From an uncultured Thermodesulfobacteriota bacterium (lineage in GTDB: Bacteria; Desulfobacterota; B13-G15; RBG-16-54-18), in NCBI GenBank assembly GCA_964565525.1, contig CAZMFG010000001.1, positions 1 to 48,220 of the forward strand: a stretch of DNA of 48,220 nucleotides, given 5' to 3'. A program made the translations under genes and the position numbers. Below the pieces are notes generated by a model. The model was not told where the DNA came from. It did not search any database and saw only the letters and a list, made by a program, of their open reading frames with translations. Position 1 is the stretch's first letter. Each line of letters begins with the position of its first letter. Shown piece after piece: positions 862 through 38,923 of this stretch.

Positions 862-1845
862 CTATTCGAAGGCAAACTCCTTCTCGTAAAAGACCCGCAG
901 ACAGGCATCGACAACCACGGGATCATACAGCGTGCCCTTGTTGTGCAGGATTTCCTCCAATGCCTCCCCGATGCCATGGGCCGGTCGGTAGGGCCGGTGT
1001 GAGGCCATAGCCTCCACCACGTCGGCTACCGCCAAGATCCGCGCCTCCAACATGATCTCATCACCCGAAAGTCCCTGAGGATAGCCGGTACCATCGAGCA
1101 ATTCATGGTGTTGCAGGACGATTTTGGCAATCGGCCGAGAATACTCGATCCCATATAATATATCATGACCTATTTGGGGATGGGCCTCAATGATATTGAA
1201 CTCGGGTTCGCTTAATCGAGTGGGCTTGATGAGGATCTCAGTCGGGACATTTACCTTGCCGATATCATGAACAATGGCTGCCAGACGGAGCCTCTCGATC
1301 TTGCCCGTAGGAAGTCTCATTTCCCCGGCAATGGCACAGGCGAGCTTTGCCACCCTTTTTTGGTGACCGGCGGTAAAGGGATCCCGTATCTCGGTTACCG
1401 CGGCGATGGCACCGATTGTTTTTTCCAGACTCTTTTTTAATCTCTCAACGCCCTTCTTGAGCTTCTTTTCCGTTTGGGAGTGTTTGGTAATTTCATCCTG
1501 CAGCTGTCTGTTCGCTGTGGCAAGCTCGGCCGTGCGCATCCTCACCTGCAGTTCTAAGCTGTTATAGGCGTCCAACAATTCCTTCTCCGCCAGGCCGAGC
1601 TTTTGCGTAAGCCGCAACAGGGAATACACAATGGGTGGGGACACAAGGGCAGGGACAAGGATGGAGGAGAAAATGCCAACAGGCACAAATGCATCTAAAA
1701 GAGTACCAATGAGCCAATACAACAAAAAGGAAGAGAGCATGGCGCACAAGGTAGCCATAATTATCACCTTAATGATTCCGAACCTCCGCAGGAAGTTGCG
1801 CAGCATTATCTCTCGCTTTATCCGTCGTGCAGCTCTATCACGCAT
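862..1845 (-). CDS. Membrane-anchored HD-GYP domain protein (putative c-di-GMP phosphodiesterase)
   Basis: 327-aa ORF with N-terminal hydrophobic helices (IIMATLCAMLSSFLLYWLIGTLL, VPALVSPPIVYSLL) and a coiled-coil-like linker. HD-GYP signatures are AAIVHDIGKV and HHELLDGTGYPQGL. The start could instead be the internal Met14. Confidence 0.85.
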   Translation of the reverse strand: MRDRAARRIKREIMLRNFLRRFGIIKVIIMATLCAMLSSFLLYWLIGTLLDAFVPVGIFSSILVPALVSPPIVYSLLRLTQKLGLAEKELLDAYNSLELQVRMRTAELATANRQLQDEITKHSQTEKKLKKGVERLKKSLEKTIGAIAAVTEIRDPFTAGHQKRVAKLACAIAGEMRLPTGKIERLRLAAIVHDIGKVNVPTEILIKPTRLSEPEFNIIEAHPQIGHDILYGIEYSRPIAKIVLQHHELLDGTGYPQGLSGDEIMLEARILAVADVVEAMASHRPYRPAHGIGEALEEILHNKGTLYDPVVVDACLRVFYEKEFAFE

Positions 1846-2165: not shown

Positions 2166-4334
2166 ATGAGAATTAAACCCTTCGCTTTTTTGACTGCGGC
2201 CTTAATGCTCTGCATCCTCGTATCTCCTGCGTACGCAACCGATCGGTACGCTGCGGAAACGGGAAAGGGATGCATATTTTGCCACCAGGAGAGTACCGGC
2301 GGGCCGCTCAAGGCCGTCGGCCTTGCCTATATAAAGAACGGCTATCAGTACCCCATCCCCGAGCGGATACTGGATAAGGCCGATGCCCTGCAGGGGCCCG
2401 TTCATACAACACTGAGGTTCATCATCGGATACCTTCATCTCCTGGCGGCCGTCGTATTTTTTGGCGCCATCTTCTATATACACATCTTTATCAGGCCTGC
2501 TCGGCTGATCGGGGGGATTCCAAAACATGAGCGCATCCTCGGCGTCACCTGCATGGTCACCCTTGCCCTCACCGGCACCTATCTGACATGGTCGCGTATC
2601 AGCAGATGGGGGCAGTTTTTCGACAACACCTTCGGCCTCATGCTCTTTGTCAAGATCCTCCTCTTTCTCACAATGGTAGGTATCGGCATTGCCGCCATCA
2701 CGGCCATCAACCGACGCATGCGCAGAGATACGCACGCGTCCGAGGGCCCTCCCGATGCCGATCACATCACCCGTGCCGATGTAGGCTATTTTGACGGCAC
2801 TGATGGCAAGCCCGCCTATGTGCTCTATCAGAATAAGATCTACGATGTCACGGCGAGTCCCAAATGGAAAAAGGGGAGGCACATGGGCAGACATGGTGCG
2901 GGCACGGACCTCACCGAGGCCCTGGCAGGGGCGCCTCACGGCGTAGAGGTCCTGAAAAACGTGAAGTATGTGGGAAAAGTCGCCGAGACAGGAGACATGG
3001 CTCAAGGTCTTACCTTCGCCCAAAAAACCTTTGTCAAGATGGCCTACGCCAATCTGGTGATTATCTTCTTGATCCTCGGTTGCATCAGCGTGTGGCGGTG
3101 GGGTTTTCCCGTGCGCTTGATCCCTGAGACGCGTGCCGCCGTCCTCACCGGGGATACCTGTATCGAATGCCATCAAGAGATAACCCCCGGCATCTACCAG
3201 GATTGGAAGGCGAGCGTTCACGCAAAGGTGGACGTGGGCTGTTATCAGTGTCACAAGGCCGGCGAGGCGGATACTCTCGTCAGCAAGGCCCACCTGGAGA
3301 ACACCCCCGCCCCCATCGCTGTGGTGGTAACCCCTCAGCAATGCGGCGGCTGCCATCCGAAGGAAGCAGCCCAGTACGCACAGAGCAAACACGCACACAC
3401 CCACGAGATCATATGGAAGATCGATCGCTGGCTCAATGACGGTATGAACAACGCCATCGAACGCACAACCGGATGTTACGCCTGTCACGGCACCGTGGTG
3501 AAGCTCACCGAGGGTACACCTCTACCGGGCACGTGGCCTAACGTCGGCGTAGGCAGAAAAAATCCGGACGGCAGTCTCGGCAGCTGCACGAGCTGCCACA
3601 CCAGGCATAAATTTTCAGTAGTAGAAGCGAGGAAACCAGAGGCCTGCGACCAGTGTCACCTCGGACCTGATCATCCCCAGATCGAGATCTACAACGAGTC
3701 CAAGCACGGGACCATCTACCATGCCGAGGGCCAGGGGTGGAACTGGCGTCCTGATGATGGGCACTGGCAGGCGGGGAGAGACTATCGGGCGCCGACCTGT
3801 GCAACATGCCACATGTCAGCGGCGGCCGATGTGGCCGCAACGCACGACGTCACCGAGCGGCTTGCCTGGGAGCTACAGGCCCCCTTGACCGTGAGGCCGG
3901 AGGAATTCAAGCCCTTCCCCGCAGATACCAATTGGAAGGCCGAACGGGAAAAGATGAAAAGGGTGTGCCTGCAGTGCCATGCCCGGCAATGGACCGATGC
4001 CCATTTTGTGAACCTCGATGAGGTGGTGGGCAATTACAACGACACGTACTTCAAACCGATAAAGGGGGTAATCGATTCTCTCTACACAGCGGGCCTCCTT
4101 TCAAACCGCAGCTATTTTGACGAGGAACTCGAATGGCAATTTTATGAGTTCTGGCACCATGAAGGGCGCCGGGCCCGGATGGGGGCCGCCATGATGGCGC
4201 CTGATTACGCCTGGTGGCACGGCTTTTATGAGCTGAAACACCGCTTCAACCATATTAATCAAAAAGCGGAAGAACTGCAAAAAGCGGGGAAGGTTTATAG
4301 GTACAAAAAATTTCCCGGGAGATTTGAACAATAG
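2166..4334 (+). CDS. Membrane-spanning multiheme cytochrome c: N-terminal c-heme, 3 TM helices, cytochrome-b5-like domain, TM helix, HAO-family-like octaheme module
   Basis: 722-aa ORF with signal peptide ..ILVSPAYA/TD. Nine CxxCH motifs: CIFCH at aa 36, then CIECH, CYQCH, CGGCH, CYACH, CTSCH, CDQCH, CATCH and CLQCH between aa 332 and 605. The b5-like heme/steroid-binding pattern is FDGTDGKPAYVLYQNKIYDVTASPKWKKGRHMGRHGAGTDLTEALAGAPHG. The C-terminal ..APDYAWWHGFYE is typical of hydroxylamine-oxidoreductase-family octahemes. Confidence 0.9.
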   Translation: MRIKPFAFLTAALMLCILVSPAYATDRYAAETGKGCIFCHQESTGGPLKAVGLAYIKNGYQYPIPERILDKADALQGPVHTTLRFIIGYLHLLAAVVFFGAIFYIHIFIRPARLIGGIPKHERILGVTCMVTLALTGTYLTWSRISRWGQFFDNTFGLMLFVKILLFLTMVGIGIAAITAINRRMRRDTHASEGPPDADHITRADVGYFDGTDGKPAYVLYQNKIYDVTASPKWKKGRHMGRHGAGTDLTEALAGAPHGVEVLKNVKYVGKVAETGDMAQGLTFAQKTFVKMAYANLVIIFLILGCISVWRWGFPVRLIPETRAAVLTGDTCIECHQEITPGIYQDWKASVHAKVDVGCYQCHKAGEADTLVSKAHLENTPAPIAVVVTPQQCGGCHPKEAAQYAQSKHAHTHEIIWKIDRWLNDGMNNAIERTTGCYACHGTVVKLTEGTPLPGTWPNVGVGRKNPDGSLGSCTSCHTRHKFSVVEARKPEACDQCHLGPDHPQIEIYNESKHGTIYHAEGQGWNWRPDDGHWQAGRDYRAPTCATCHMSAAADVAATHDVTERLAWELQAPLTVRPEEFKPFPADTNWKAEREKMKRVCLQCHARQWTDAHFVNLDEVVGNYNDTYFKPIKGVIDSLYTAGLLSNRSYFDEELEWQFYEFWHHEGRRARMGAAMMAPDYAWWHGFYELKHRFNHINQKAEELQKAGKVYRYKKFPGRFEQ

Positions 4335-6562: not shown

Positions 6563-7798
6563 TCACGTATGTGCCAGGGCCTCCACCGGGGTGAACCGGG
6601 CCGCCTTCACGGCCGGGTACAGGCTCACCACCAACCCCAAGATGAACACCACCAGGTTGGCCATTAAAACGTCTTGGCCTACGATATGGGGATAGATTAC
6701 CCGGGACATACCCCAATATTCCATGCCCGCGGCGAGCGCAGAGAGGTCGATGCCGGTCCCGGAAAGGACGAGGACACTCAAAAACCCCACCGCATTGCCG
6801 ATGGCCATGCCGAGTATCAAGAGACAGAATGATTCGACGAGAACCCCTCTGACGATCCACCACGGCTTCATGCCGAGAGCCTTGAGCAGACCGAACTCCT
6901 TGATCCGTTCGAACACCGCCATCAACGTGGTGTTCACGATGCCGAATCCCATGGCGATAAAAACGACTAAAAACCACAAGAAGATGAACCAGTCGTATAT
7001 CTTCATGATGGCGGAGACCATGGGGAGGATCTCTTGCCAGGTATTGACTTCATACTCTGCTGCGGGGAGCTCGGCCCGTAAGGTGTCGGCCACATGGTCT
7101 GCCTCGCCGTGCTCGGCAAGGAGGACGACGAACTCGGAGATCCCGTGTGATAACCGCAGCATCTCCTGCGCTGCGGGGAGGGTGACGAAGACGAACTGTT
7201 TCTCCGTGGCCTCCATCTCGGCCCGGTAGACCCCGACGATGCGGAAGGCCCGTGAGGCTATCTCTCCCTCGGTATCTTGGGACATAAGGATCAGCTTGTA
7301 GCCCAAGTGGGTATCGAACCGCTCTGCCAGGGCCTGGCCTACCACAATCCCGTAGGGGTCGTCGGACTTCAGATAGCGCCCCTCCGTAATTGCCCCCCCG
7401 ATGAACGAGACGGCCGCCTCTCGTGGGGGATCGATACCCACCATGGTGACACCGGTGGAGTGCCGGGCATTGCTCGCGATGGCGCTGACTCGAACCCGGG
7501 GGACCCACTGGGCGTCGGGGGGCAGGACTGCGGTGAGGGCGGCCTCCACCCGGGCAGGATTTTCTATGCTGTTCTGGACGGCCGGATCGCTTCGGTACCC
7601 CTTCTCGTGCACCTGGACATGCCCGGTGAGGGTGGCGATGCCGTTGCGGACGAACTGGTCGGCGATCCCCCGCATGAGGGCGCCCAAGAAGATCATGCTC
7701 CAGACCCCGATGACGACCGCCGTCAAGATGACCAGGGTCCTGCGGCGATTGCGCCAGATGTTTCGCCATCCTATTTGCAAAAACATGAAAAAATTCAT
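6563..7798 (-). CDS. ABC transporter permease, FtsX/LolC-LolE-MacB type (copy 2)
   Basis: 411 aa. One N-terminal TM, a large periplasmic loop, then three C-terminal TMs with the FtsX-type motif FERIKEFGLLKALGMKP. Same strand and next to the ATPase. Confidence 0.85.
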   Translation of the reverse strand: MNFFMFLQIGWRNIWRNRRRTLVILTAVVIGVWSMIFLGALMRGIADQFVRNGIATLTGHVQVHEKGYRSDPAVQNSIENPARVEAALTAVLPPDAQWVPRVRVSAIASNARHSTGVTMVGIDPPREAAVSFIGGAITEGRYLKSDDPYGIVVGQALAERFDTHLGYKLILMSQDTEGEIASRAFRIVGVYRAEMEATEKQFVFVTLPAAQEMLRLSHGISEFVVLLAEHGEADHVADTLRAELPAAEYEVNTWQEILPMVSAIMKIYDWFIFLWFLVVFIAMGFGIVNTTLMAVFERIKEFGLLKALGMKPWWIVRGVLVESFCLLILGMAIGNAVGFLSVLVLSGTGIDLSALAAGMEYWGMSRVIYPHIVGQDVLMANLVVFILGLVVSLYPAVKAARFTPVEALAHT

Positions 7799-10961: not shown

Positions 10962-11555
10962 TTACGGATCAGGCGATAATTCTACCCGATCGGCTCTCTT
11001 TTTCTTATAATGATAACGGTGTAACGCCCACAGCAACAAGCCGATGATAACCATTGCCCCGAGAATAATGACTTCATAGTGTTTGATGTCACCGAGTATG
11101 ACCTCCAGCGTATGACCAAAGAGGTATCCGCCGGTCCCGACGACGACGGCCCACACAAAGGCCGCAATGACATCCAAGATGATAAATGTTCTTCTCGACA
11201 CAGAACTCATACCAAATAAAAAAGGTATGATCGTACGCATCCCGTACATAAATCGAAATCCCAGGAGCAGGGGGGTTCGAAACCGTTCCAGGAGCCGATG
11301 GGCCCAATCAATACGGGCCTTCCACAAGGGAAATTTGTCCAGCACCCACTGGGTATGCTTGCGACCGAGATAAAAAAACAACTGGTCACCGCAGAGGCTG
11401 CCGATAAAGGCAGCCAGTATTACCCAGGGCAAGGCCAAATAGCCGCGCTGGGCGGCAAATCCTCCCAACACCAAGATGGTCTCTCCCTCGGTAAAGGTGC
11501 CTACTAAAACAGCCCAATAACCGTAAGTTTCCAGGAAGGATTGGAAGGGAATCAT
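10962..11555 (-). CDS. DedA family membrane protein (paralog 1)
   Basis: 197 aa. YGYWAVLVGTFTEGETILVLGGFAAQRGYL...GDQLFFYLGR...FRFMYGMRTIIPF is the SNARE-associated/DedA pattern. Confidence 0.85.
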   Translation of the reverse strand: MIPFQSFLETYGYWAVLVGTFTEGETILVLGGFAAQRGYLALPWVILAAFIGSLCGDQLFFYLGRKHTQWVLDKFPLWKARIDWAHRLLERFRTPLLLGFRFMYGMRTIIPFLFGMSSVSRRTFIILDVIAAFVWAVVVGTGGYLFGHTLEVILGDIKHYEVIILGAMVIIGLLLWALHRYHYKKKRADRVELSPDP

Positions 11556-13159: not shown

Positions 13160-13786
13160 TTAGGTCAATCGCATCCCTACAATCTTGTTCCTTCCCTTAC
13201 GAACCCTGCGATGATTCAACGTCATTGTTTTAAGTCTTCTGCGCCGATACAAATGCATAAACCAGAGCATCGCACCTATAATAACAACGACACCCAGTAC
13301 TTCGAGTTCATAGTGTTTGATGTCCCCAATAATAATCTCCAGTGCATGGCCAAAGAAATAACCCCCAACGCCCATCGCCAGTGCCCAAGCGAAGGCGCTC
13401 ACGACGTTGAGCATAATGAATATTATGGTAGGTACTCGACTCATGCCAATTACGAAGGGGGTCACCGTCCGCAGTCCGTACATGAAGCGGAAAGAGATAA
13501 TCACCATTGTACGGTAACGTTCTAGCAGCCTCTGCGCTTTATTGACACGCGCTTGCCAGCGCGGATGTTTGGCCAGCATGCCGTGGCTGTGCCACCGACC
13601 GAGATAAAAATAGAGCTGGTCTCCAAATAGCGTTCCGGCAAATGCAGCTAGAATTACCCACGGCAACTGTAAATATCCTTGGTGTGCCGCAAGCCCACTG
13701 AGAATAAGAACGGTCTCACCCTCGAGGAACGTGCCAACGAAGATGGCTACATAGCCATAGGTCTGAATGAGAGATTCTATCGTCAT
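13160..13786 (-). CDS. DedA family membrane protein (paralog 2)
   Basis: 208 aa. YGYVAIFVGTFLEGETVLILSGLAAHQGYL...GDQLYFYLGR...FRFMYGLRTVTPF. By eye it is roughly 55-60% identical to 10962..11555. Confidence 0.85.
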   Translation of the reverse strand: MTIESLIQTYGYVAIFVGTFLEGETVLILSGLAAHQGYLQLPWVILAAFAGTLFGDQLYFYLGRWHSHGMLAKHPRWQARVNKAQRLLERYRTMVIISFRFMYGLRTVTPFVIGMSRVPTIIFIMLNVVSAFAWALAMGVGGYFFGHALEIIIGDIKHYELEVLGVVVIIGAMLWFMHLYRRRRLKTMTLNHRRVRKGRNKIVGMRLT

Positions 13787-26887: not shown

Positions 26888-27892
26888 TCATTGTTGAGCA
26901 ATATAATCAGCCAGATCGAGCAGTCGGCGTGCATATCCATATTCGTTGTCGTACCAAACAAGCACCTTTGCCACTCTGTTGACAATCACCCGGGTTGATG
27001 GTCCATCGACTATCCCAGAATGTGTATCGTCGATGATATCGGCAGACACCATTTCGTCGTCGCTATAATCCAGAATACCCTTGAGCTCCTCATTGGCAGC
27101 CTTTTTGTACGCTGAATTGACAGTTTGAACCGAAACATCCCTTTGCAGGTGGGCCACAATATCTGTTATAGCTCCGTCGGGAATGGGGGCCCTCACGGCA
27201 ATGGCGTCCATTTTCCCTTTGAGTTCAGGGATAACCAAGGCGGTAGCCTCTGCTGCCCCCGTTGAAGTCGGTATGAGAGAAACCGCTGCGGCGCGCCCCC
27301 TGCGCAGTTTACGGGCCGCCCGGTCCACCAATGCTTGGCTGGCTGTGTAGGCATGAATCGTTGTGGCCATAAGGTATTCGATCCCAAAGGCGTCGTTTAA
27401 CACCTTGACAGCTGGGGCCAATGAATTGGTCGTGCACGATGCGTTTGAAATCACATGATGCCGCTGAGCGTCATATAATTGTTCATTGACCCCCATCACC
27501 ACGGTCAAGTCGGCACTCACAGAGGGGGCACTAATGATGACCTTGGATGCCCCCGCTTGTAGGTGTTTTACTGCGTCCTCCCGTTTTCTAAAAAGCCCGG
27601 TACATTCCAAAACAATATCGATATCGAGGTTCTTCCACGGAAGTGCTAGAGGATCCTTTTCGCTGACGACGGTTATCTTCTGTGAGCCGAGAGTTATATA
27701 ATCTGATCCGGTTTTTATGGGAAATGTAGCCCTTCTATGCACAGAATCATACCGGATGAGATACGCAAGTTCATCGATTGGGGTCAGATCATTGGCTGCA
27801 ACAATTTGGACAGTATCCGGTGCATCGATGAGATAGTGTCGCAACGCCATCCTCCCGATGCGTCCTAATCCATTAATAGCAATGTTCTTCAT
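26888..27892 (-). CDS. gap: Type I glyceraldehyde-3-phosphate dehydrogenase
   Basis: 334 aa. INGLGRIGR NAD motif, active-site SNASCTTNSLAP, and C-terminal WYDNEYGY. Confidence 0.95.
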   Translation of the reverse strand: MKNIAINGLGRIGRMALRHYLIDAPDTVQIVAANDLTPIDELAYLIRYDSVHRRATFPIKTGSDYITLGSQKITVVSEKDPLALPWKNLDIDIVLECTGLFRKREDAVKHLQAGASKVIISAPSVSADLTVVMGVNEQLYDAQRHHVISNASCTTNSLAPAVKVLNDAFGIEYLMATTIHAYTASQALVDRAARKLRRGRAAAVSLIPTSTGAAEATALVIPELKGKMDAIAVRAPIPDGAITDIVAHLQRDVSVQTVNSAYKKAANEELKGILDYSDDEMVSADIIDDTHSGIVDGPSTRVIVNRVAKVLVWYDNEYGYARRLLDLADYIAQQ

Positions 27893-27963
27893 GGCAACTC
27901 CTCTCTCTTTACCATGTTACCTTCCCATAACCTGCTTCGGAGACACTTCAATTCATTCCTTTA

Positions 27964-28055
27964 TTAAGTTCGTCTTTTTGTAACACTCGGTTGGAGTCTG
28001 TATATTTACGGCTCAATCTTCATTGAAGGATCAGCCTTACCAATAATGTTAAGAA
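27964..28055 (-). pseudogene. Relic copy of the 3' end (last ~16 codons, stop, ~42-nt trailer) of a PMM/PGM gene
   Basis: The minus strand reads TGA-KGILNIIGKADPSMKIEP-stop, against the true PMM/PGM C-terminus ..QEVLNIIGKADSSMEVES-stop. In my ungapped hand alignment 75 of 92 positions are identical to 28483..28574, with an offset of exactly 519 nt. Confidence 0.6.
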
Positions 28056-28112
28056 TACCCTTTCACGTTTAGTCATATGTTTGCGGGAGCACTATAACGC
28101 CTATAACAAAGA

Positions 28113-28152
28113 TTAAAAAAGACCGGAGCAAATGTCTATTGGACCTTGGTCT
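28113..28152 (-). terminator. Possible weak intrinsic terminator after the LuxR-type ORF
   Basis: Minus strand: AAGACC..(loop)..GGTCTT followed by TTTTTTAATC. The stem is only 6 bp with a long loop, so this is weak. Confidence 0.3.
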
Positions 28153-28198
28153 TATATGGGGGAAAAGTGGCCGGTGGCACGTGATCAATGATTGCTGT

Positions 28199-28477
28199 CT
28201 ATTCTTTGGTGGGTTTAATGCCCGCCTTCTCGGCCAAGCGGACTAAATCGGCGAGCGAGCCGACGCCAAGCTTCTCAAGGATGCGACCGCGGTGGACCTT
28301 CATCGTCTTCTCGGAGATGCCCAACTCGTACGCAATCTGCTTGTTCAGCATGCCGATGATGACGTAATGAAAGATTTCATATTCGCGCGGGGGGAGCAGT
28401 GCAAGGCGCCCGCGGACCTCATGCACTTCGGCATATTTCACTCTTGCCTGCGTGTCTTGTTCAATCGTCTCCCTCAC
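28199..28477 (-). CDS. LuxR/FixJ-type HTH domain protein (linker + HTH only; possibly a 3' fragment of a response-regulator gene)
   Basis: 92 aa. LPPREYEIFHYVIIGMLNKQIAYELGISEKTMKVHRGRILEKLGV is the GerE/LuxR HTH. There is no receiver domain. The start is a GTG with no Shine-Dalgarno sequence. Sampled lines are about 57-60% GC against about 40-48% in the flanking genes. Confidence 0.55.
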   Translation of the reverse strand: MRETIEQDTQARVKYAEVHEVRGRLALLPPREYEIFHYVIIGMLNKQIAYELGISEKTMKVHRGRILEKLGVGSLADLVRLAEKAGIKPTKE

Positions 28478-28524
28478 CGCTGTTAAGTTAGTCTTTTTGA
28501 AACAATCGGTTGGAAATTATACAT

Positions 28525-29886
28525 CTATGACTCAACCTCCATCGAAGAATCAGCCTTACCAATAATATTAAGCACTTCTTGTTTCTTTTCTTCTTCAGTT
28601 GTTGCGTCGTTCGCTTCCAGATTGAGACGCATGAGGGGCTCTGTGTTGGACGTCCTGAGGTTGAACCACCAGGTATCATATTCTATTGATAATCCATCGA
28701 GATGATCTTTTCTTGCATCGGTATAGTTCGCCTCGAGGGCAGCGAAAACGGCTTCTTTATCCTTTACCTGGATATTGATCTCTCCCGTTGCGTAATATGT
28801 TTGGAGAGGGCGAATCAAGCCTGAGAGCGGCATATTTTTTAAAGATAACAAGTTTAACATCTGAATCATGGTAAAAAGGGCATTGTCGGTAAATCCCATG
28901 TCTTGATAGTAGTAATGCCCGGAAAGTTCGCCGGCAAACAGGGCATTTACTTCTCTCATGGTGGCCTTGATAAAGGCGTGACCTACCCGAGTACGTACCG
29001 CCTTGCCCCCCAGACGGGTAATGGTCTCAGGTACAATGCGGCTTGAACGCAGATCGTAAAGGATTGTTGCCCCTGGCTTCTTTGCTAGGAGGAACTCTGC
29101 AATGAGGGCGGTCACCAGATCCTCAGGGATCCTCTCCCCTTTTTCATCGATAAAGCCGCAACGATCAGCGTCCCCGTCAAATGCCACACCGACATCTGCT
29201 TTTTCCCGACGGACCATGGCCTGCAAATCACGGGTGGCAGCAGGCAGGAGGGGATTGGCAATGTGATGGGGAAAGCTCCCATCCGGTTCCATATAGAGAG
29301 GCACCAGCGTCCAGACGGGAAATTCCTTGAAGAGGGAAAATACCTCAGGCCCGGCCATACCATTTCCCGCATCCACCACAATTTTTAAGGGCTTTGGGTT
29401 GTGGACAAAGCTGCTGAGTTTTGCGATATATTTCTCTGACATATCGAGTTCCTGATAAGAACCATCTGTCGGATGACTTCGCTGTACAGGCAGCTTTTCA
29501 ATAACCAAACGTTCCAGCTCGGGCAGCCCCCGGTCTCCGCTCAAGGGGATGGCCTCTTCCCGGCAGAGCTTTAAGCCGTTCATCCCGCCGGGGAGATGGG
29601 ACGCCGTCACCATGGCTCCACCGTCAAACCGCCCTGCGATGATAGCATAATAGAGCAAAGGGGTGGTGACCATCCCGATATCGGTGACCGCGGCCCCTGA
29701 TGCGACAGCTCCTTCTATAAAGGCCTTGGCAAGCGCTGAGGCAGAAAGCCGCATATCGCGACCGATAACAATGTTCTTGGCATTGAGTAAGCGGACAAAG
29801 GCAGCCCCGATTTTCCTTGCCATCACCTCATCTAATTCATCGGGATAAGAGCCCCGGATATCGTAGGCCTTAAAAATACCTCCCAT
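28525..29886 (-). CDS. Phosphomannomutase/phosphoglucomutase
   Basis: MGGIFKAYDIRGSYPDEL start, TASHLPGGMNGLK active-site serine loop, DGDADRCGF metal loop and GELSGHYYY. Start moved from 30012 to the ATG at 29886: GGAGGC lies upstream, 11 nt after the glgP stop, and this removes a 115-nt overlap with glgP. Confidence 0.9.
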   Translation of the reverse strand: MGGIFKAYDIRGSYPDELDEVMARKIGAAFVRLLNAKNIVIGRDMRLSASALAKAFIEGAVASGAAVTDIGMVTTPLLYYAIIAGRFDGGAMVTASHLPGGMNGLKLCREEAIPLSGDRGLPELERLVIEKLPVQRSHPTDGSYQELDMSEKYIAKLSSFVHNPKPLKIVVDAGNGMAGPEVFSLFKEFPVWTLVPLYMEPDGSFPHHIANPLLPAATRDLQAMVRREKADVGVAFDGDADRCGFIDEKGERIPEDLVTALIAEFLLAKKPGATILYDLRSSRIVPETITRLGGKAVRTRVGHAFIKATMREVNALFAGELSGHYYYQDMGFTDNALFTMIQMLNLLSLKNMPLSGLIRPLQTYYATGEINIQVKDKEAVFAALEANYTDARKDHLDGLSIEYDTWWFNLRTSNTEPLMRLNLEANDATTEEEKKQEVLNIIGKADSSMEVES

Positions 29887-29897
29887 AGTCCTGCCTC

Positions 29898-32027
29898 CTA
29901 TGCCTCCTTCAAGGCTTTGGCGTAAAACTTCTCGATATATTCCTTGACCATCCGCCGCGCGGAAAACCTGGAACCACTGCCTTTTATGGATTCCTTCATG
30001 ACCTTGACCCACCCATGCGGTATACCGTCATCGGAAACCTCGTAATAGAGGGGGATGATCTCCCTTTCCAGAATCTGGTAGATGGCCTCGGCGTCTGCCT
30101 GATCCCTGTTTCCGCTCACTTCTTTCTGACCAAAGGCCCATCCGTTTTTCCCATTGAAGCCCTCCATCCACCAGCCATCCATGATACTCAGGTGGGGCAC
30201 GCCATTTAAGGCAGCCTTCATCCCGCTGGTGCCACTGGCCTCCATAGGGGGGAGGGGATTGTTGAGCCAGACATCCACTCCATGAACCAGGTATTGTGCC
30301 AGTTGTTCTCCATAATCCTCAACAAGGGCGATCCTGCCACCCAATTCTGGATCCAGGGCCGCATTAAATATCCTCTGCAGGATGCGTTTGCCCGGGTCAT
30401 CCGCGGGATGGGCCTTCCCGGCAAAGATGATCTGTATGGGACGCCAACGGTCATTGAGGAGTTTTTTTAAACGCTCGATATCATAAAAGATGAGGTCCGC
30501 CCTCTTGTAGGTCGCAAACCTACGGGCAAAACCCAGGGTCAATACCGAGTGATCCAACAACGTTCCACCGGCGCGCACGACCGATAGGTTGACATGATCC
30601 GTTACCCAGCGTTGACGTATGCGTTCACGAATCGCGTCGATCAACTTGATTTTTAACCAATAATGAGTCTTCCACAACTCCTCATCGGGTACCTCGTCGA
30701 TCAGCTTCCAGAGGGCCTCGTTATCATGATCCGCCAACCAGGTGGGGCCGAGATACGTATTAAAGAGGAGCTCCATCTTCGGTTCTATCCAGGTGGGAAC
30801 GTGCACACCGTTGGTTACATAATCGATGGGAACCTTCTGCTCCGGTATCTCGGGCCAGAGGGACTGCCACATCTGACGGGCCACTTCTCCATGGCGTTTG
30901 CTGACACCATTGTGATGGCCGGATAACCTGAGGGCAAAGGCCGTCATATTAAAACCCGCGTTAGGATCTTTGGGATTGATCCCCAACTGTAAAAAGGTGT
31001 CACGATCCAGCCCTAAGTTCGACCAGTAGGAGCGAAAATATTTTTCTATCAGTTCAAAGGAAAAGACATCATGACCGGCTGGAACCGGCGTGTGGGTCGT
31101 AAACACGGAGGTCTGGCGAACCCGCTGAACAGCCTCCTCATAACGCATCCCCCCCTGCACGCGCTCCCTGATCCGCTCCAACAAGGCAAACGCGGCATGT
31201 CCTTCATTCAGATGGAGGATTGAATGCTTGATGCCCAGGGCATCCAACATTTGGGATCCACCGATGCCCAGTACGATTTCTTGCCGCAACCGCTGCTCTA
31301 TATCGCTGACATACAACCGCTGGGATATCCTTCTGTTCCAGGGATCATTGATTTCTATATCGGTATCCAACAGGTAAAGGGGTATACGGCCGACAGCTAT
31401 CCGCCATACAGCCACATGGATCGGAGGGTCTATCAAAGGTACCTTGACCACAATCTGGTCTCCGGTTTCGTTGAGGACTCTGAAAATCGACGCTGCATCC
31501 CGATCTAGAGTTTCATTGATGTTCTCCTGCCAGCCGTCCTCTCGGATGTGCTGGCGCAAGTAGCCTTGCGGGTACATAAAGCCTACCGCAACCACAGGGA
31601 CCTTTAAGTCGCTGCATTCCTTGATATAATCACCGGCCAAAAATCCTAATCCACCGGCATAAAACGGCAAGGAATGATGAAGCCCATACTCTGCGGAAAA
31701 ATAGGCAATGGGATAGTGGTTTGGGTCAAGGACATGTTCTGAAAAGTATCCCTCTTGTGCGTCCATATAGTTTCGGAATTCAGCAAGCACCTTATCATAG
31801 TGACGGAGATATTCAGGGTCACGCGCGGCTGATTCCAAAGCTTCTCTGGGAAGCTCTGTAAGCACCTTGACCGGATTATGGCCGCTCTCCTTCCAGACTT
31901 GCCGGTCCAACATCTTGAAAAGCACCCTGGCCGCCGGGTGCCAGCTCCACCAGAGATTCGCGGCCAGATCTCCTAAACCGCTCAACTGCTGTGGGAGATC
32001 GGAGGGTATACCCTGTTTGATTTCCAT
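29898..32027 (-). CDS. glgP: Alpha-glucan (glycogen/maltodextrin) phosphorylase, GT35, short bacterial/archaeal type
   Basis: 709 aa. The N-terminal LGDLAANLWWSWHPAA block is typical of the alpha-glucan phosphorylase subgroup. EASGTSGMKAALNG is the pyridoxal-phosphate Lys region. Confidence 0.9.
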   Translation of the reverse strand: MEIKQGIPSDLPQQLSGLGDLAANLWWSWHPAARVLFKMLDRQVWKESGHNPVKVLTELPREALESAARDPEYLRHYDKVLAEFRNYMDAQEGYFSEHVLDPNHYPIAYFSAEYGLHHSLPFYAGGLGFLAGDYIKECSDLKVPVVAVGFMYPQGYLRQHIREDGWQENINETLDRDAASIFRVLNETGDQIVVKVPLIDPPIHVAVWRIAVGRIPLYLLDTDIEINDPWNRRISQRLYVSDIEQRLRQEIVLGIGGSQMLDALGIKHSILHLNEGHAAFALLERIRERVQGGMRYEEAVQRVRQTSVFTTHTPVPAGHDVFSFELIEKYFRSYWSNLGLDRDTFLQLGINPKDPNAGFNMTAFALRLSGHHNGVSKRHGEVARQMWQSLWPEIPEQKVPIDYVTNGVHVPTWIEPKMELLFNTYLGPTWLADHDNEALWKLIDEVPDEELWKTHYWLKIKLIDAIRERIRQRWVTDHVNLSVVRAGGTLLDHSVLTLGFARRFATYKRADLIFYDIERLKKLLNDRWRPIQIIFAGKAHPADDPGKRILQRIFNAALDPELGGRIALVEDYGEQLAQYLVHGVDVWLNNPLPPMEASGTSGMKAALNGVPHLSIMDGWWMEGFNGKNGWAFGQKEVSGNRDQADAEAIYQILEREIIPLYYEVSDDGIPHGWVKVMKESIKGSGSRFSARRMVKEYIEKFYAKALKEA

Positions 32028-36455: not shown

Positions 36456-37817
36456 TTGTTATCCCTTATCACGGTCTCCTTCACCCTCGTCTTCGGCAGG
36501 GTTTTCTGCGGGTGGGTCTGCCCCCTGGGGACGTTGAACGACTTCATGGGCCGCCTCACCCCCAAGGAACGGAGAAAAAAGCACCTGGGGGATCGGGCAC
36601 GCAGGCTCAAGTACTACGGCCTCATTGTCATCCTCGTCAGCTCCCTCTTCACCCTGCAGATAGCCGGGCTGGCGGACCCCATCTCGCTGCTGATCCGCTC
36701 CCTGGCCGTGGCCGCAGAGCCCGCCGTGAACCTGATGACCCATACCGTCTTCGACCTCCTCTACCGCGCCGATATCCCCGTGGTCACCGCAATCTCCGAG
36801 GCCATCTATGCCGTTCTCAAAAAATATATCTTGGCCTTTCATCAACCCTTCTTCTATCAGGGGATCTTTATCGGCCTCATCTTCGCAGCTATCCTCCTCG
36901 CCAACCTCTATCGGCGCCGTTTCTGGTGTAACGCCCTCTGTCCCCTCGGGGCCCTGCTGGGGCTCATTACCCAGATCAGCCCCTTCAAGAGGGTCGTAGG
37001 AAAGGGCTGCACTTCCTGCAACCTCTGTGTGCGGGAGTGCCGCACCGGCGCGGCAGCGGACGTGAAAGGGAAGTGGCAAAAGACGGAGTGTGTGATGTGC
37101 GGCGAGTGTCAGGAGGACTGCCCCGAGGATGCGGTGAGGTTCGGTTTTCTCCCCGCCAAGGCGGGAAAGGTTACAGGGGTCGATCTGGGGCGGCGCGGGG
37201 TGATCGCCTCCCTGGTCACCGGGATCTTTATCGTCCCTCTTATGCGAACCAACCCCCTCACGCAACGACGAACGGGGCGGCTGATCCGCCCCCCCGGCGC
37301 CCTGCCGGAGGATGAATTCCTGCGCCGATGCGTGCGCTGCGGTGAGTGCATGAAGGTCTGCCTCACCAACGGACTCCAACCCGCCCTCTTCGAGGCAGGA
37401 CTGGAGGGGATCTGGACCCCCCGCTTCGACTTCCACAGCGGCTACTGCCAATACTACTGCACCCTCTGCGGTCAGGTATGCCCCACCGGCGCCCTCAGGG
37501 AGCTCTCCCAGGAGGAGAAGGCCGGCACCAAGATCGGTCTCGCCTATATCGACAAGAACCGCTGTATCCCCTATGCACAGGGGGTCGAGTGTCTGGTGTG
37601 CGAGGAGCACTGCCCCACGCCGGACAAGGCCATCAAGTTCGAGCAGGTAGAGACAATGACCCCCCGGGGGAGAAAACTGATCAGACGTCCGGTGATAGAC
37701 CTCAAGCTTTGCATCGGCTGCGGGATCTGCGAATACAAGTGCCCGCTGCACGACCAGCCCGCCATCATCTGCACCCGCCTCGGAGAATCCAGGGCGGACG
37801 AGCTGCTGCCTTTTTAA
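36456..37817 (+). CDS. Membrane-bound polyferredoxin, NapH/MauN/CcoG-like, about six [4Fe-4S]-type motifs
   Basis: Two CxxxCP membrane-domain motifs (CGWVCPLG, CNALCPLG). Six ferredoxin-type cysteine clusters (CTSCNLCVREC, CVMCGECQEDCP, CVRCGECMKVC, CTLCGQVCP, CLVCEEHCP, CIGCGICEYKCP). The coordinates follow the track (TTG start), but the frame is open and protein-like back to 36213 (see finding). Confidence 0.85.
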   Translation: MLSLITVSFTLVFGRVFCGWVCPLGTLNDFMGRLTPKERRKKHLGDRARRLKYYGLIVILVSSLFTLQIAGLADPISLLIRSLAVAAEPAVNLMTHTVFDLLYRADIPVVTAISEAIYAVLKKYILAFHQPFFYQGIFIGLIFAAILLANLYRRRFWCNALCPLGALLGLITQISPFKRVVGKGCTSCNLCVRECRTGAAADVKGKWQKTECVMCGECQEDCPEDAVRFGFLPAKAGKVTGVDLGRRGVIASLVTGIFIVPLMRTNPLTQRRTGRLIRPPGALPEDEFLRRCVRCGECMKVCLTNGLQPALFEAGLEGIWTPRFDFHSGYCQYYCTLCGQVCPTGALRELSQEEKAGTKIGLAYIDKNRCIPYAQGVECLVCEEHCPTPDKAIKFEQVETMTPRGRKLIRRPVIDLKLCIGCGICEYKCPLHDQPAIICTRLGESRADELLPF

Positions 37818-37858
37818 CCCTGAATATTCAATAAAGGCCCTTGTTCTGCCGAAATAGC

Positions 37859-37941
37859 GAGGGGCTTTCCCCTCATCTTCCTCTGTAGAGGAAGCACCCA
37901 TGCGGCAACCCTCCCCCTGAAAGATTAAAAAAATTTAATCT
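37859..37941 (+). other. Three consecutive perfect stem-loops downstream of the polyferredoxin gene (the first may act as a terminator)
   Basis: GAGGGG-cttt-CCCCTC (37859..37874). CTTCCTC-tgta-GAGGAAG (37877..37894). AGATTAAA-aaaa-TTTAATCT (37922..37941). None is followed by a clear T-tract. Confidence 0.55.
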
Positions 37942-38005
37942 CCCGTTAATGGGCCTTTAATCTTCATCGAGTATACTAGTGTTCAAAAGAGAGGCGAGGA
38001 AGCGG

Positions 38006-38266
38006 ATGTATTTCAAGTTGGTGATGGAAGGGGGTCATGTCGGGGCGGGGAAGAGTTATGAGATGGTGCGGTATTTTCAGGGCAACGATATCTTCGCCAT
38101 CCTCGCCGGGACCCGTTCTATCCCTCGCTTGAAGAAAAAGAGGTTCGGTGGGGGCATCAAGCTCATCAAGGAGATCTCCTGGGGAGAATATCTCACCGGC
38201 AAAGGGAGAGAGAAAAGAGATCCTTATCTCAACCCAAGCGCTCCTTCTGCCATGGTCCCCGCGTGA
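38006..38266 (+). CDS. Small hypothetical protein (86 aa from the ATG; the track starts it at GTG 37979)
   Basis: MYFKLVMEGGHVGAGKSYEMVRYFQGNDIFAILAGTRSIPRLKKKRFGGGIKLIKEISWGEY... GAGGAAG lies 3-4 nt upstream of the ATG at 38006. No family recognised. It sits between the two copies of the polyferredoxin 3' end. Confidence 0.45.
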   Translation: MYFKLVMEGGHVGAGKSYEMVRYFQGNDIFAILAGTRSIPRLKKKRFGGGIKLIKEISWGEYLTGKGREKRDPYLNPSAPSAMVPA

Positions 38267-38387: not shown

Positions 38388-38469
38388 GACCAGCCGCCAT
38401 CATCTGCTCCCGCTTCGGAGAATCACAGCCAGAGGAACTGCTACCTGTTAAACCCCCAATAGTTAGTAA
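38388..38469 (+). pseudogene. Relic copy of the 3' end of a polyferredoxin gene (frameshifted)
   Basis: Aligns with 37752..37834. It reads ..AIICSRFGESQPEELLP against the true ..AIICTRLGESRADELLPF-stop. About 65 of 82 aligned positions are identical by hand, with one 1-nt gap (gaccagcc-gcc) that breaks the frame. Weaker similarity extends upstream to about 38365. Confidence 0.55.
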
Positions 38470-38783
38470 TCCAAGTGCCGTCCATCAGCACGAAGAAGGG
38501 AAAAACCTTTTCTCCCTTTCTCTTTTTCCTTTCCCCATCGGCTAGCTGTGAGGTCCCAGCCCCATCGTGGAGAGGGTGGGGGTGAGGAAGATATGACTAT
38601 GACTTGCCCCCACATCTTCATCCCCTCCAGAGGAGAGGTATGTGCTTATTGTTTAAGTAATGTATTTAACCATTAGGAATTTTCGGCCAAGCTTTTTTTC
38701 GACCCTCTCTCCATCTTGCCCAAATCTAACCGCCCGCAATACTTAAACTTTTTAAATTTTTGTCAAATTTTTTAAAATTCCTC

Positions 38784-38850
38784 TTGACAAATAAACTTAA
38801 CATGTACTATATGTTGTGGTACAGAATTTGGACAATACAATATATTATGT
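38784..38850 (+). promoter_or_regulatory. nrdD promoter candidate with two NrdR-box-like sites
   Basis: An A/T-rich UP-like tract lies upstream. TTGACA (38784..38789) and a -10-like TACTATAT (38805..38812). Box 1 GTACTATATGTTGTGG (38804..38819) and box 2 ATACAATATATTATGT (38835..38850) match the 16-bp NrdR palindrome acaCwAtATaTwGtgt at about 11 and about 13 positions. The box starts are 31 bp apart (three helical turns), the usual tandem arrangement. Confidence 0.5.
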
Positions 38851-38923
38851 AATTAAACAATTAAATCACATGTCATTCAACCACTAAATCATAGAAACCA
38901 ACAAGGGGAAGGGGTGGGAAATC

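Follow-up and report, generated by a model that had tools for sequence, protein, structure and literature searches.

We analysed a 48-kb stretch of DNA (48,220 nt; hereafter the window) from an uncultured Thermodesulfobacteriota bacterium, in which the 3' end of a phosphomannomutase/phosphoglucomutase (PMM/PGM) gene occurs twice as a direct repeat and a 427-nt insert with a short LuxR-type open reading frame (ORF) lies between the two copies. With somewhat better than even confidence, we regard this feature as a scar left by recombination at a gene-content hotspot immediately after PMM/PGM, resembling the products of homology-facilitated illegitimate recombination (HFIR), and not as a mobile cassette. 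The insert is a truncated piece of a FixJ-type two-component locus. On its right side it is joined illegitimately, through 4 nt of microhomology, to a second PMM allele, the junction falling inside the final 51 nt of that allele. The second allele shows no decay and passes without interruption into the native trailer, the gap leader and gap. On the minus strand the gene order is phosphorylase, PMM/PGM, the ORF, glyceraldehyde-3-phosphate dehydrogenase (GAPDH, encoded by gap) and then a glycolytic cluster. The features of the locus are listed below; L- and P-numbers in the text are labels for the contigs and proteins of relatives with which the window was compared.

29898..32027, minus strand: alpha-glucan phosphorylase gene
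28525..29886, minus strand: PMM/PGM gene, 453 aa from MGGIFKAYDIRG, whose 3' end is the upstream repeat copy
28483..28574, minus strand: upstream, functional repeat copy, comprising the final 15-16 codons of PMM (…VLNIIGKADSSMEVES) with the TAG stop and, after it, a 42-nt trailer ending …AACTTAA
28056..28482, minus strand: 427-nt insert, the 3' part of a FixJ-family response-regulator locus from codon ~121 to the base before the next ATG
28199..28477, minus strand: 92-aa ORF with a GTG start, comprising the end of the receiver alpha-5 helix, a linker and a LuxR/GerE helix-turn-helix (HTH)
28134..28157, minus strand: invariant 24-mer ATATAAGACCAAGGTCCAATAGAC of the regulator locus
28050..28053, minus strand: right junction, CTTA microhomology between the intergenic end of the regulator locus and PMM
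27964..28053, minus strand: downstream repeat copy, a relic of another PMM allele with LNIIGKADPSMKIEP, a TAA stop and a 42-nt trailer
26888..27963, minus strand: gap leader (27893-27963) and GAPDH gene (26888..27892; Pfam Gp_dh_N and Gp_dh_C)

The arrangement recurs in independent data. The ORF protein was recovered from five single-run Logan assemblies, whose contigs are 99.9% identical to the window and carry both repeat copies, and the PMM-LuxR junction was found in two JGI contigs with identities of 97.5% and 99.5%. Because the same junctions are present in seven independent assemblies, we conclude that the structure does not stem from an assembly error. Related strains co-occur in the metagenomes that served as sources, and contigs frequently terminate close to the junctions, which could point to a chimera of mixed strains or to a collapsed or duplicated repeat. 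Such an origin is extremely improbable given that the junctions are common to different runs and pipelines, that the two copies share no exact word longer than 18 nt, and that neither novel junction has flanking similarity or a shared k-mer that could cause a mis-join. An earlier reading, made from the letters of the window without database searches (the sequence-only reading), had named an assembly duplication as grounds for doubt; the agreement of seven independently assembled contigs speaks against it. All seven (97.5-100% identity) carry the insert, and no same-species empty site was found among them.

A repeat search placed the direct repeat at 27964-28053 and 28483-28572 (90 nt, 82% identity, spacing 519), with a self-blastn E-value of 6.9e-19. 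When extended to 92 nt, it reproduces the 75 identical positions out of 92 at offset 519 that the sequence-only reading had counted. The best ungapped direct-repeat score in the interval 27000-30000 was 42, again at offset 519; 100 dinucleotide shuffles of this interval gave a mean of 11.2 (sd 0.84) and a maximum of 14, so that the shuffling check proposed earlier leaves the repeat far above its controls. The longest identical run between the copies is 18 nt and lies inside the repeat rather than at the insert edges, and the mismatches are distributed over both copies, are of all types and run in both directions. The downstream copy, preceded by an in-frame TGA, consists of LNIIGKADPSMKIEP and a stop followed by the same trailer, and the conservation of this 42-nt trailer in both copies had been recognized correctly. 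Two other properties ascribed to the insert are weak. Its GC content is 53-56%, yet PMM and gap span 38 to 64%, and the supposed weak terminator was not recovered by a terminator scan, the region having just a short AAGACC...GGTCTTTTTT hairpin with a T-run. A blastx comparison of all intergenic regions with all window proteins returned only two relics, the one described here and the second case described below.

To trace the insert, we turned to full-length FixJ-family regulators, which a metagenome scan returned at 208-220 aa and 62-73% identity to the ORF; these full-length relatives do possess a receiver domain. The best match, L089, carries a histidine kinase gene, a regulator gene (1006..1653) and a receiver-only regulator gene from about 1809. 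Window positions 28480-28050 align with L089 1372-1809 at 79.9% identity over 438 nt, with the alignment stopping at both insert ends, which supplies the full-length parent that the sequence-only reading had suggested looking for. The insert therefore consists of the regulator's last 94 codons plus the complete downstream intergenic region: similarity starts in frame at the left edge (…AVRE, corresponding to …LLQAVRE in the parent) and ends one base ahead of the ATG of the next gene. The ORF matches the GerE/LuxR HTH (PF00196, 1.7e-19) over residues 28-82 and the FixJ model over positions 118-201 of 203. As the FixJ match begins only at position 118, the receiver domain with its phospho-acceptor Asp is missing, and the earlier description of a 92-aa GTG-initiated LuxR/FixJ linker-plus-HTH ORF lacking a receiver is borne out by both models. 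No Shine-Dalgarno sequence was found at the ORF, the sole promoter-like match of a promoter scan is on the wrong strand, and the 3' part of the insert folds no better than shuffled controls (z = +1.08), giving no sign of a structured RNA. The 92-aa ORF is probably a gene fragment and a by-product of the event, and we predict its expression neither way. The 48-kb window contains no paralogue of the regulator, and among 5.8 billion proteins there was no full-length regulator with more than 73% identity to the fragment.

The intergenic part of the insert includes the 24-mer ATATAAGACCAAGGTCCAATAGAC, which in full-length loci lies ~65-85 nt upstream of the receiver-only response-regulator gene and, because of this position and its invariance, is probably the promoter or leader of that gene. 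It occurs at 28134-28157 (minus strand) in the window, at 1702-1725 in L089, 2375-2398 in L091, 2596-2619 in L101 and 487-510 in L001, invariant in loci that are otherwise 70-80% identical and preceded by TGATCAC-like repeats; in the window it faces the gap cluster and the PMM relic. On unrelated metagenome contigs, FixJ-type regulator genes, full-length or frameshifted, are also flanked, or overlapped at their 3' ends, by direct repeats of 55-74 nt with 77-82% identity (L091 787-858 / 2034-2105; L101 603-657 / 1471-1525; L106 1290-1431 / 2616-2742).

At the right junction the parental locus in L089 reads …GGGTATCCTTATGCC, PMM reads …GTGCTTAATATT and the product reads …GGGTATTCTTAACATT, so the two sequences are joined at the 4-nt microhomology CTTA. 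This alignment assigns the residues 'KGI' to the regulator locus and not to the PMM relic. Of the colinear PMM peptide that the sequence-only reading saw in the downstream copy, the part LNIIGKADPSMKIEP-stop behind the TGA accordingly stands and 'KGI' is insert-derived.

The two PMM ends behave as different alleles rather than as a gene and its decaying duplicate. By allele class, the upstream, functional end groups with L087 and L129 (ADSSMEVKS / VDSSIEAKS), and the relic bears P, K, I and synonymous states that are known from other lineages. Eight states set the relic apart, and seven of them are also present in relatives' functional PMM alleles (P = 0.0005-0.007 if decay were random). Because these states fit functional alleles and not random decay, the relic was a working gene end until recently, and the earlier claim that the copies diverged as functional gene ends is upheld. 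An argument from codon positions and dN/dS on the 48-nt relic alone was dropped, the relic being too short for significance.

Empty sites, which the sequence-only reading had proposed to look for in related genomes, were found in L006, L087, L129 and L130. Gap follows directly after PMM in L006. In the other three contigs the trailer comes after PMM, then the gap leader with a decayed stub formed by the first ~9 gap codons (leader and stub at 8363-8560 in L087 and 7363-7560 in L129 and L130), and finally Usp. The window has the order gap…phosphoglycerate mutase-Usp, and since it keeps this ~4.9-kb gap-to-phosphoglycerate-mutase block ahead of Usp, the stub is a deletion scar left by loss of the block. 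The trailer and leader of L087, L129 and L130 are colinear with the sequence after the window's relic, which confirms the empty-site arrangement. Gap is thus the native neighbour of PMM in the empty-site relatives, and the window's downstream repeat copy runs unbroken into the gap leader.

The content of this position is variable. Synteny upstream of PMM is kept among relatives, and what comes after PMM is gap, a P-type ATPase gene followed by gap, Usp followed by the ATPase gene, or LysE followed by Kup. None of about 12 relatives inspected has PMM followed by a complete regulator locus, and junction repeats of this type are absent from the distant PMM loci L002-L013, L034 and L037; the repeat phenomenon was seen only in the close clade of the window. 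Compared with the window over 28210-30715, L133 diverges by 6.9% in phosphorylase and by 0.4% in PMM, and the PMM gene of L128 is a mosaic with 96-99% window-like tracts within an L001-like gene. Homologous exchange among the co-occurring lineages is frequent, with breaks at gene junctions. L009 ('Bacterium BMS3Bbin05') has ~147-nt tandem and dispersed repeats near PMM (1311-1761, 2845-3405 and 7471-7585) that are unrelated to the feature described here.

A sister product is present in L001 (CAZFIR010000221.1), a Thermodesulfobacteriota metagenome-assembled genome (MAG) and the closest relative in the genome collection, with a PMM that is 88% identical. In L001 an 82%-identical copy of the regulator fragment lies at another junction, between repeats of the 3' end of the neighbouring phosphorylase gene. 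The layout begins with a phosphorylase 3' end, its stop, a spacer and the initial 12 codons of PMM, which continue in frame into the HTH (MGGIFKAYDIRG|HLELL…), goes on with the intergenic region, nine codons of the receiver-only gene and a second phosphorylase 3' end of about 215 nt, and closes with a hydrogenase operon plus Usp gene, a third, decayed phosphorylase end and the real PMM. Within L001 1-5500, three phosphorylase 3'-end copies in this way bracket the LuxR fragment and the hydrogenase operon with Usp. The left junction has an 11-nt microhomology, GATATCCGGGG (PMM 'YDIRG' against regulator 'LDIRG'), and the right junction has the microhomology CTATG. The same structure was assembled a second time in L102. 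From mid-PMM on, L128 matches L001 with 100% identity, but it differs upstream, where phosphorylase and PMM are adjacent, and it is an empty site for the 5.3-kb composite of L001.

In L089 coordinates the fragment extends over ~1372-1800 in the window and ~1432-1835 in L001, both ends being different. The dS between the two fragments is 0.37, compared with ~0.9-1.1 between either of them and any full-length regulator. Neither fragment has a closer relative than the other one, which points to a single old acquisition whose trimming then differed between the lineages. Comparing the two fragments gives an omega of 0.33, whereas full-length regulators compared among themselves give 0.07-0.13, indicating that constraint on the fragments is relaxed. 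The first phosphorylase end of L001 (copy 1) is 100% identical to that of the window over 135 nt. Copy 2 is an in-frame L088-type end ('SNGPRFCARR') that differs from L088 mostly at synonymous positions, with 3-4 amino-acid changes by alignment count.

A single event might account for the same fragment beside PMM in both lineages with different ends, namely an ancestral tandem duplication of ~1.6 kb that began 215 nt ahead of the phosphorylase stop and reached trailer +42, the regulator fragment serving as filler at the joint, with reciprocal microhomology deletions afterwards. The window would have lost copy b except for its last 51 nt, and L001 would have lost copy a from codon 12; the left junction of the window and the right junction of L001 would be the original joints, and CTTA and GATATCCGGGG ordinary deletion joints. 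We consider this scheme improbable. It makes copy 2 of L001 dead since before the window/L001 split (fragment dS 0.37), yet that copy is undecayed, selection-shaped and close to L088. It is further opposed by the window's relic being no clearly closer to the PMM end of L001 than the functional copy is: the relic and the functional copy are identical to L128, whose PMM 3' half is that of L001 (100%), at 35 and 36 of 48 positions, respectively.

HFIR has been described in naturally transformable bacteria, among them Acinetobacter baylyi, Streptococcus pneumoniae and Pseudomonas stutzeri. Its products have one homologous end and one illegitimate end, the latter with 3-10 bp of microhomology (PMC3240628). 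CTTA falls within this range, as does CTATG of L001, and the 11 nt of L001 lie just above it. An insert that is a locus fragment, joints at microhomologies, undecayed foreign alleles, the lack of a recombinase, variable ends and the mosaics at the hotspot together argue for an HFIR-type process. One-sided homologous plus illegitimate recombination had been the second alternative of the sequence-only reading and is the mechanism that best fits the microhomology, the foreign alleles and the mosaics. Like HFIR products, the locus would combine a homologous anchor in shared genes with a short-microhomology join at the opposite end, which places heterologous DNA beside a conserved gene; unlike them, the join lies inside the anchor gene's own 3' end and part of the anchor is duplicated, instead of a simple deletion in the recipient.

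The sequence of steps may be pictured as follows. A foreign segment with the regulator locus would once have stood directly after the PMM trailer, its left edge cutting the regulator at trailer +42. Later, DNA of a related lineage with the PMM-gap adjacency would have recombined in, one end crossing over homologously in the shared genes and the other, broken in PMM 51 nt before the stop, being joined illegitimately at CTTA. Most of the foreign segment would thereby have been removed, leaving the 427-nt remnant and adding a partial second PMM end. The mirror orientation, with the PMM side and remnant imported and the gap side resident, is equally possible. For L001 the incoming DNA would have been broken in phosphorylase 215 nt before the stop, the window and L001 having been trimmed independently, and a further deletion between 11-nt repeats would have removed the redundant PMM copy.

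Several points weigh against this scenario. The intermediate with the PMM trailer followed by the whole regulator locus was not found in the inspected genomes, the homologous crossover of this event was not located, and its donor was not observed. The left junction, …AACTTAA|CAGCGGTG, has little microhomology. Classical HFIR couples insertion with deletion and a partial duplication of the anchor gene is unusual; here the partial duplication of the PMM end is observed, and a coupled deletion would have taken the rest of the regulator locus. No competence genes of the host lie within the 48-kb window. In addition, the two trailers are 83% alike and closer to each other than to the trailer of any sampled relative, so that an in-genome duplication followed by allele replacement is conceivable. 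Finally, duplications of 109-950 bp in E. coli have been ascribed to a single crossover of recircularised DNA (PMC3240628).

The likeness of the trailers, whose changes are split about equally between the two, counts in favour of replicative template switching. In this alternative, akin to fork stalling and template switching (FoSTeS) or MMBIR (microhomology-mediated break-induced replication), or to fill-in of a widely staggered break, the 92 nt would be a true target duplication whose functional copy was later overwritten by another allele. Having left PMM at trailer +42, the nascent strand would have taken the regulator locus as its template for ~430 nt and then annealed again at CTTA, 51 nt ahead of the stop of PMM. 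Templated insertion and microhomology at the return junction agree with such a course, and L001 fits a two-switch event with microhomologies of 11 nt and 5 nt. We hold it to be unlikely. The copies are 18% different, yet the relic lacks the signs of random decay, and copy 2 of L001 is an intact L088-type allele and not a derivative of copy 1. An extra allele-replacement tract is needed that ends in the last few bases of the trailer, a regulator parent is absent from the window and none is close in the databases, and two independent captures of one locus beside PMM in sister lineages would be a coincidence. Templated insertion by MMBIR or FoSTeS is best documented in eukaryotes (for example PMC8421209). 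Such events resemble our locus in the copying of sequence from another locus, the junction microhomology and the duplication of the flanking target, and differ from it in that here the flanks are different alleles and the window holds no in-genome template.

The E. coli precedent, with its homologous-end duplications of 109-950 bp, lends some credit to a Campbell-type integration, in which a circle of ~519 nt with the PMM end, the trailer and the regulator fragment would have entered by one homologous crossover within the 92-nt homology; the equal extent of the repeats on both sides also agrees with it. We rate this route as highly doubtful, because the homology is just 92 nt at 82% identity with a longest identical run of 18 nt, a poor RecA substrate, the circle needs two illegitimate joints beforehand, and no other copies of a circle-derived unit were found. 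The lacZ products of single-crossover integration of recircularised DNA in E. coli (PMC3240628) are alike in that heterologous DNA is flanked by gene-end repeats. They are unlike the window, where the repeats are 92 nt at 82% identity and the flanks are distinct alleles.

The sequence-only reading had described a cassette-like insertion bracketed by direct repeats, with attL/attR-like integration as one of its two explanations. A site-specific cassette or integrative element of this kind would supply a replacement 3' end and be mobilised in trans, and it draws on a superficial likeness to islands in gene 3' ends, the cassette size of the insert and the occurrence of two cases in 48 kb. We find it very improbable. 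There is no recombinase in the window, and no Pfam match to an integrase or transposase among the window genes scanned. The insert-chromosome boundaries share no identical core, 27000-30000 has no attC-like inverted repeat, and the junctions are microhomologies (4 nt at the right edge) within a fragment of a gene locus. The termini differ between L001 and the window, and what would be the 'cargo' in the second case is a syntenic gene resident there. A tRNA or tmRNA gene as an att target was not found in the window by ARAGORN, and Rfam gave only chance snoRNA matches (E > 3). Integrative islands in gene 3' ends likewise have gene-3'-end repeats flanking the DNA and an intact target gene; here, by contrast, there is no integrase and no identical core at the edges, and the insert is a 427-nt locus fragment with variable ends. 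Integron cassettes match in size (~0.5 kb) and in their single promoter-less ORF, and they differ in that the window has no attC and no integrase, has flanks made of host gene ends, and carries a truncated gene with its intergenic region. A diversity-generating retroelement, with a variable repeat and template repeat, was also considered and rejected, as the mismatches are not adenine-specific and the window has no reverse transcriptase. Gene displacement in situ or flexible-islet replacement shares with our locus the lineage-specific junction genes, the gene-end relics and the mosaic identity, but here a scar of about 0.5 kb is seen and not a whole displaced gene.

It is tempting to speculate that the lineage possesses a recurrent and perhaps dedicated means of inserting and removing DNA precisely at gene junctions, by which the end of the adjoining gene is duplicated, although we regard this as quite improbable. 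With equally little confidence, small units such as the regulator fragment with the 24-mer might in that reading move among co-occurring lineages as a recombinase-free 'hitch-hiking cassette' that uses host gene ends as homology arms; if true, such a cassette would be able to rewire expression of the downstream gap cluster. On the HFIR-like reading, the locus is a known class of recombination product, unusually well documented, and holds no new mechanism. It is rare for natural products of illegitimate recombination or HFIR to be available together with both junctions, the parent locus, empty sites and a sister product, and in uncultivated bacteria this almost never happens. The locus shows, at base resolution, the turnover of gene content at a hotspot among co-occurring lineages, which leaves gene-end relics and orphan fragments behind. 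It is a useful worked example and also a caution, since annotation pipelines will label the 92-aa ORF a 'LuxR family regulator' and the structure can be mistaken for a mobile cassette.

As to the flanking gene itself, the PMM/PGM protein has all four Pfam PGM_PMM domains, matches NCBIfam PRK09542 (4e-138) and is 100% identical to protein P0117.

A second repeat of this form lies at 37.7-38.5 kb, where the sequence-only reading had seen the same architecture. Its features are:

37759..37834, plus strand: functional copy, the 3' end of a polyferredoxin gene (36456..37817) with its stop and 17 nt
37979..38266, plus strand: gene between the copies, a conserved small protein of an 86-96 aa family
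38394..38469, plus strand: polyferredoxin 3'-end relic that has lost the stop

The repeat is real (37759-37834 / 38394-38469; 76-84 nt with 78% identity and a spacing of 635; its score of 26 exceeds the shuffle maximum of 14), and in form the likeness stands. It does not extend to the content, since the ORF between the copies is a resident conserved gene and the scar is old and present in at least three lineages. The ORF is a complete member of a widespread family of small proteins (86-96 aa, 140 matches) that gave no Pfam or NCBIfam match. In relatives the small gene is flanked by the polyferredoxin and NrdD genes, and in some cases a MazEF pair has been inserted there as well. The left boundary of the polyferredoxin relic is common to the window, L123 and L126/L127, but its decay has taken different courses, the window relic having lost its stop and the L123 relic carrying a 1-nt deletion; L124 and L125 cease to resemble the window at 38403, the relic start, and other genes follow. 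These comparisons indicate that the second case is an older scar of the same general kind around a resident conserved gene in at least three lineages, and not a recent cassette.

The functional polyferredoxin end of the window reads ATCATCTGC (I-I-C) at 37779-37790 and is relic-like in this, whereas the functional copies of other lineages (L123/L124/L126) read ATYATYGTC (I-I-V). The I-I-C state may have passed from the relic to the gene by gene conversion, or may be ancestral and retained. At least two members of the small-protein family (MYFKLVMEGGHVGAGKSYEM…, 78-96 aa, P0237-P0356) come from JXA50-tagged Deltaproteobacteria MAG records, and the MazEF neighbour is found in L123 and L126. A 480-aa antisense ORF (36459-37901, minus strand) spans the entire polyferredoxin gene and exceeds the real gene in length; although almost certainly spurious, it could lead gene callers astray. 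A non-coding stretch of ~450 nt (38470-38923), with AT-rich promoter-like sequence near 38700-38870, separates the polyferredoxin relic from nrdD. The sole other long direct similarity in the window is a paralogous pair of VTT-domain genes on the minus strand (10962-11555 and 13160-13786), which lie 2.2 kb apart and are 64% identical over 438 nt.

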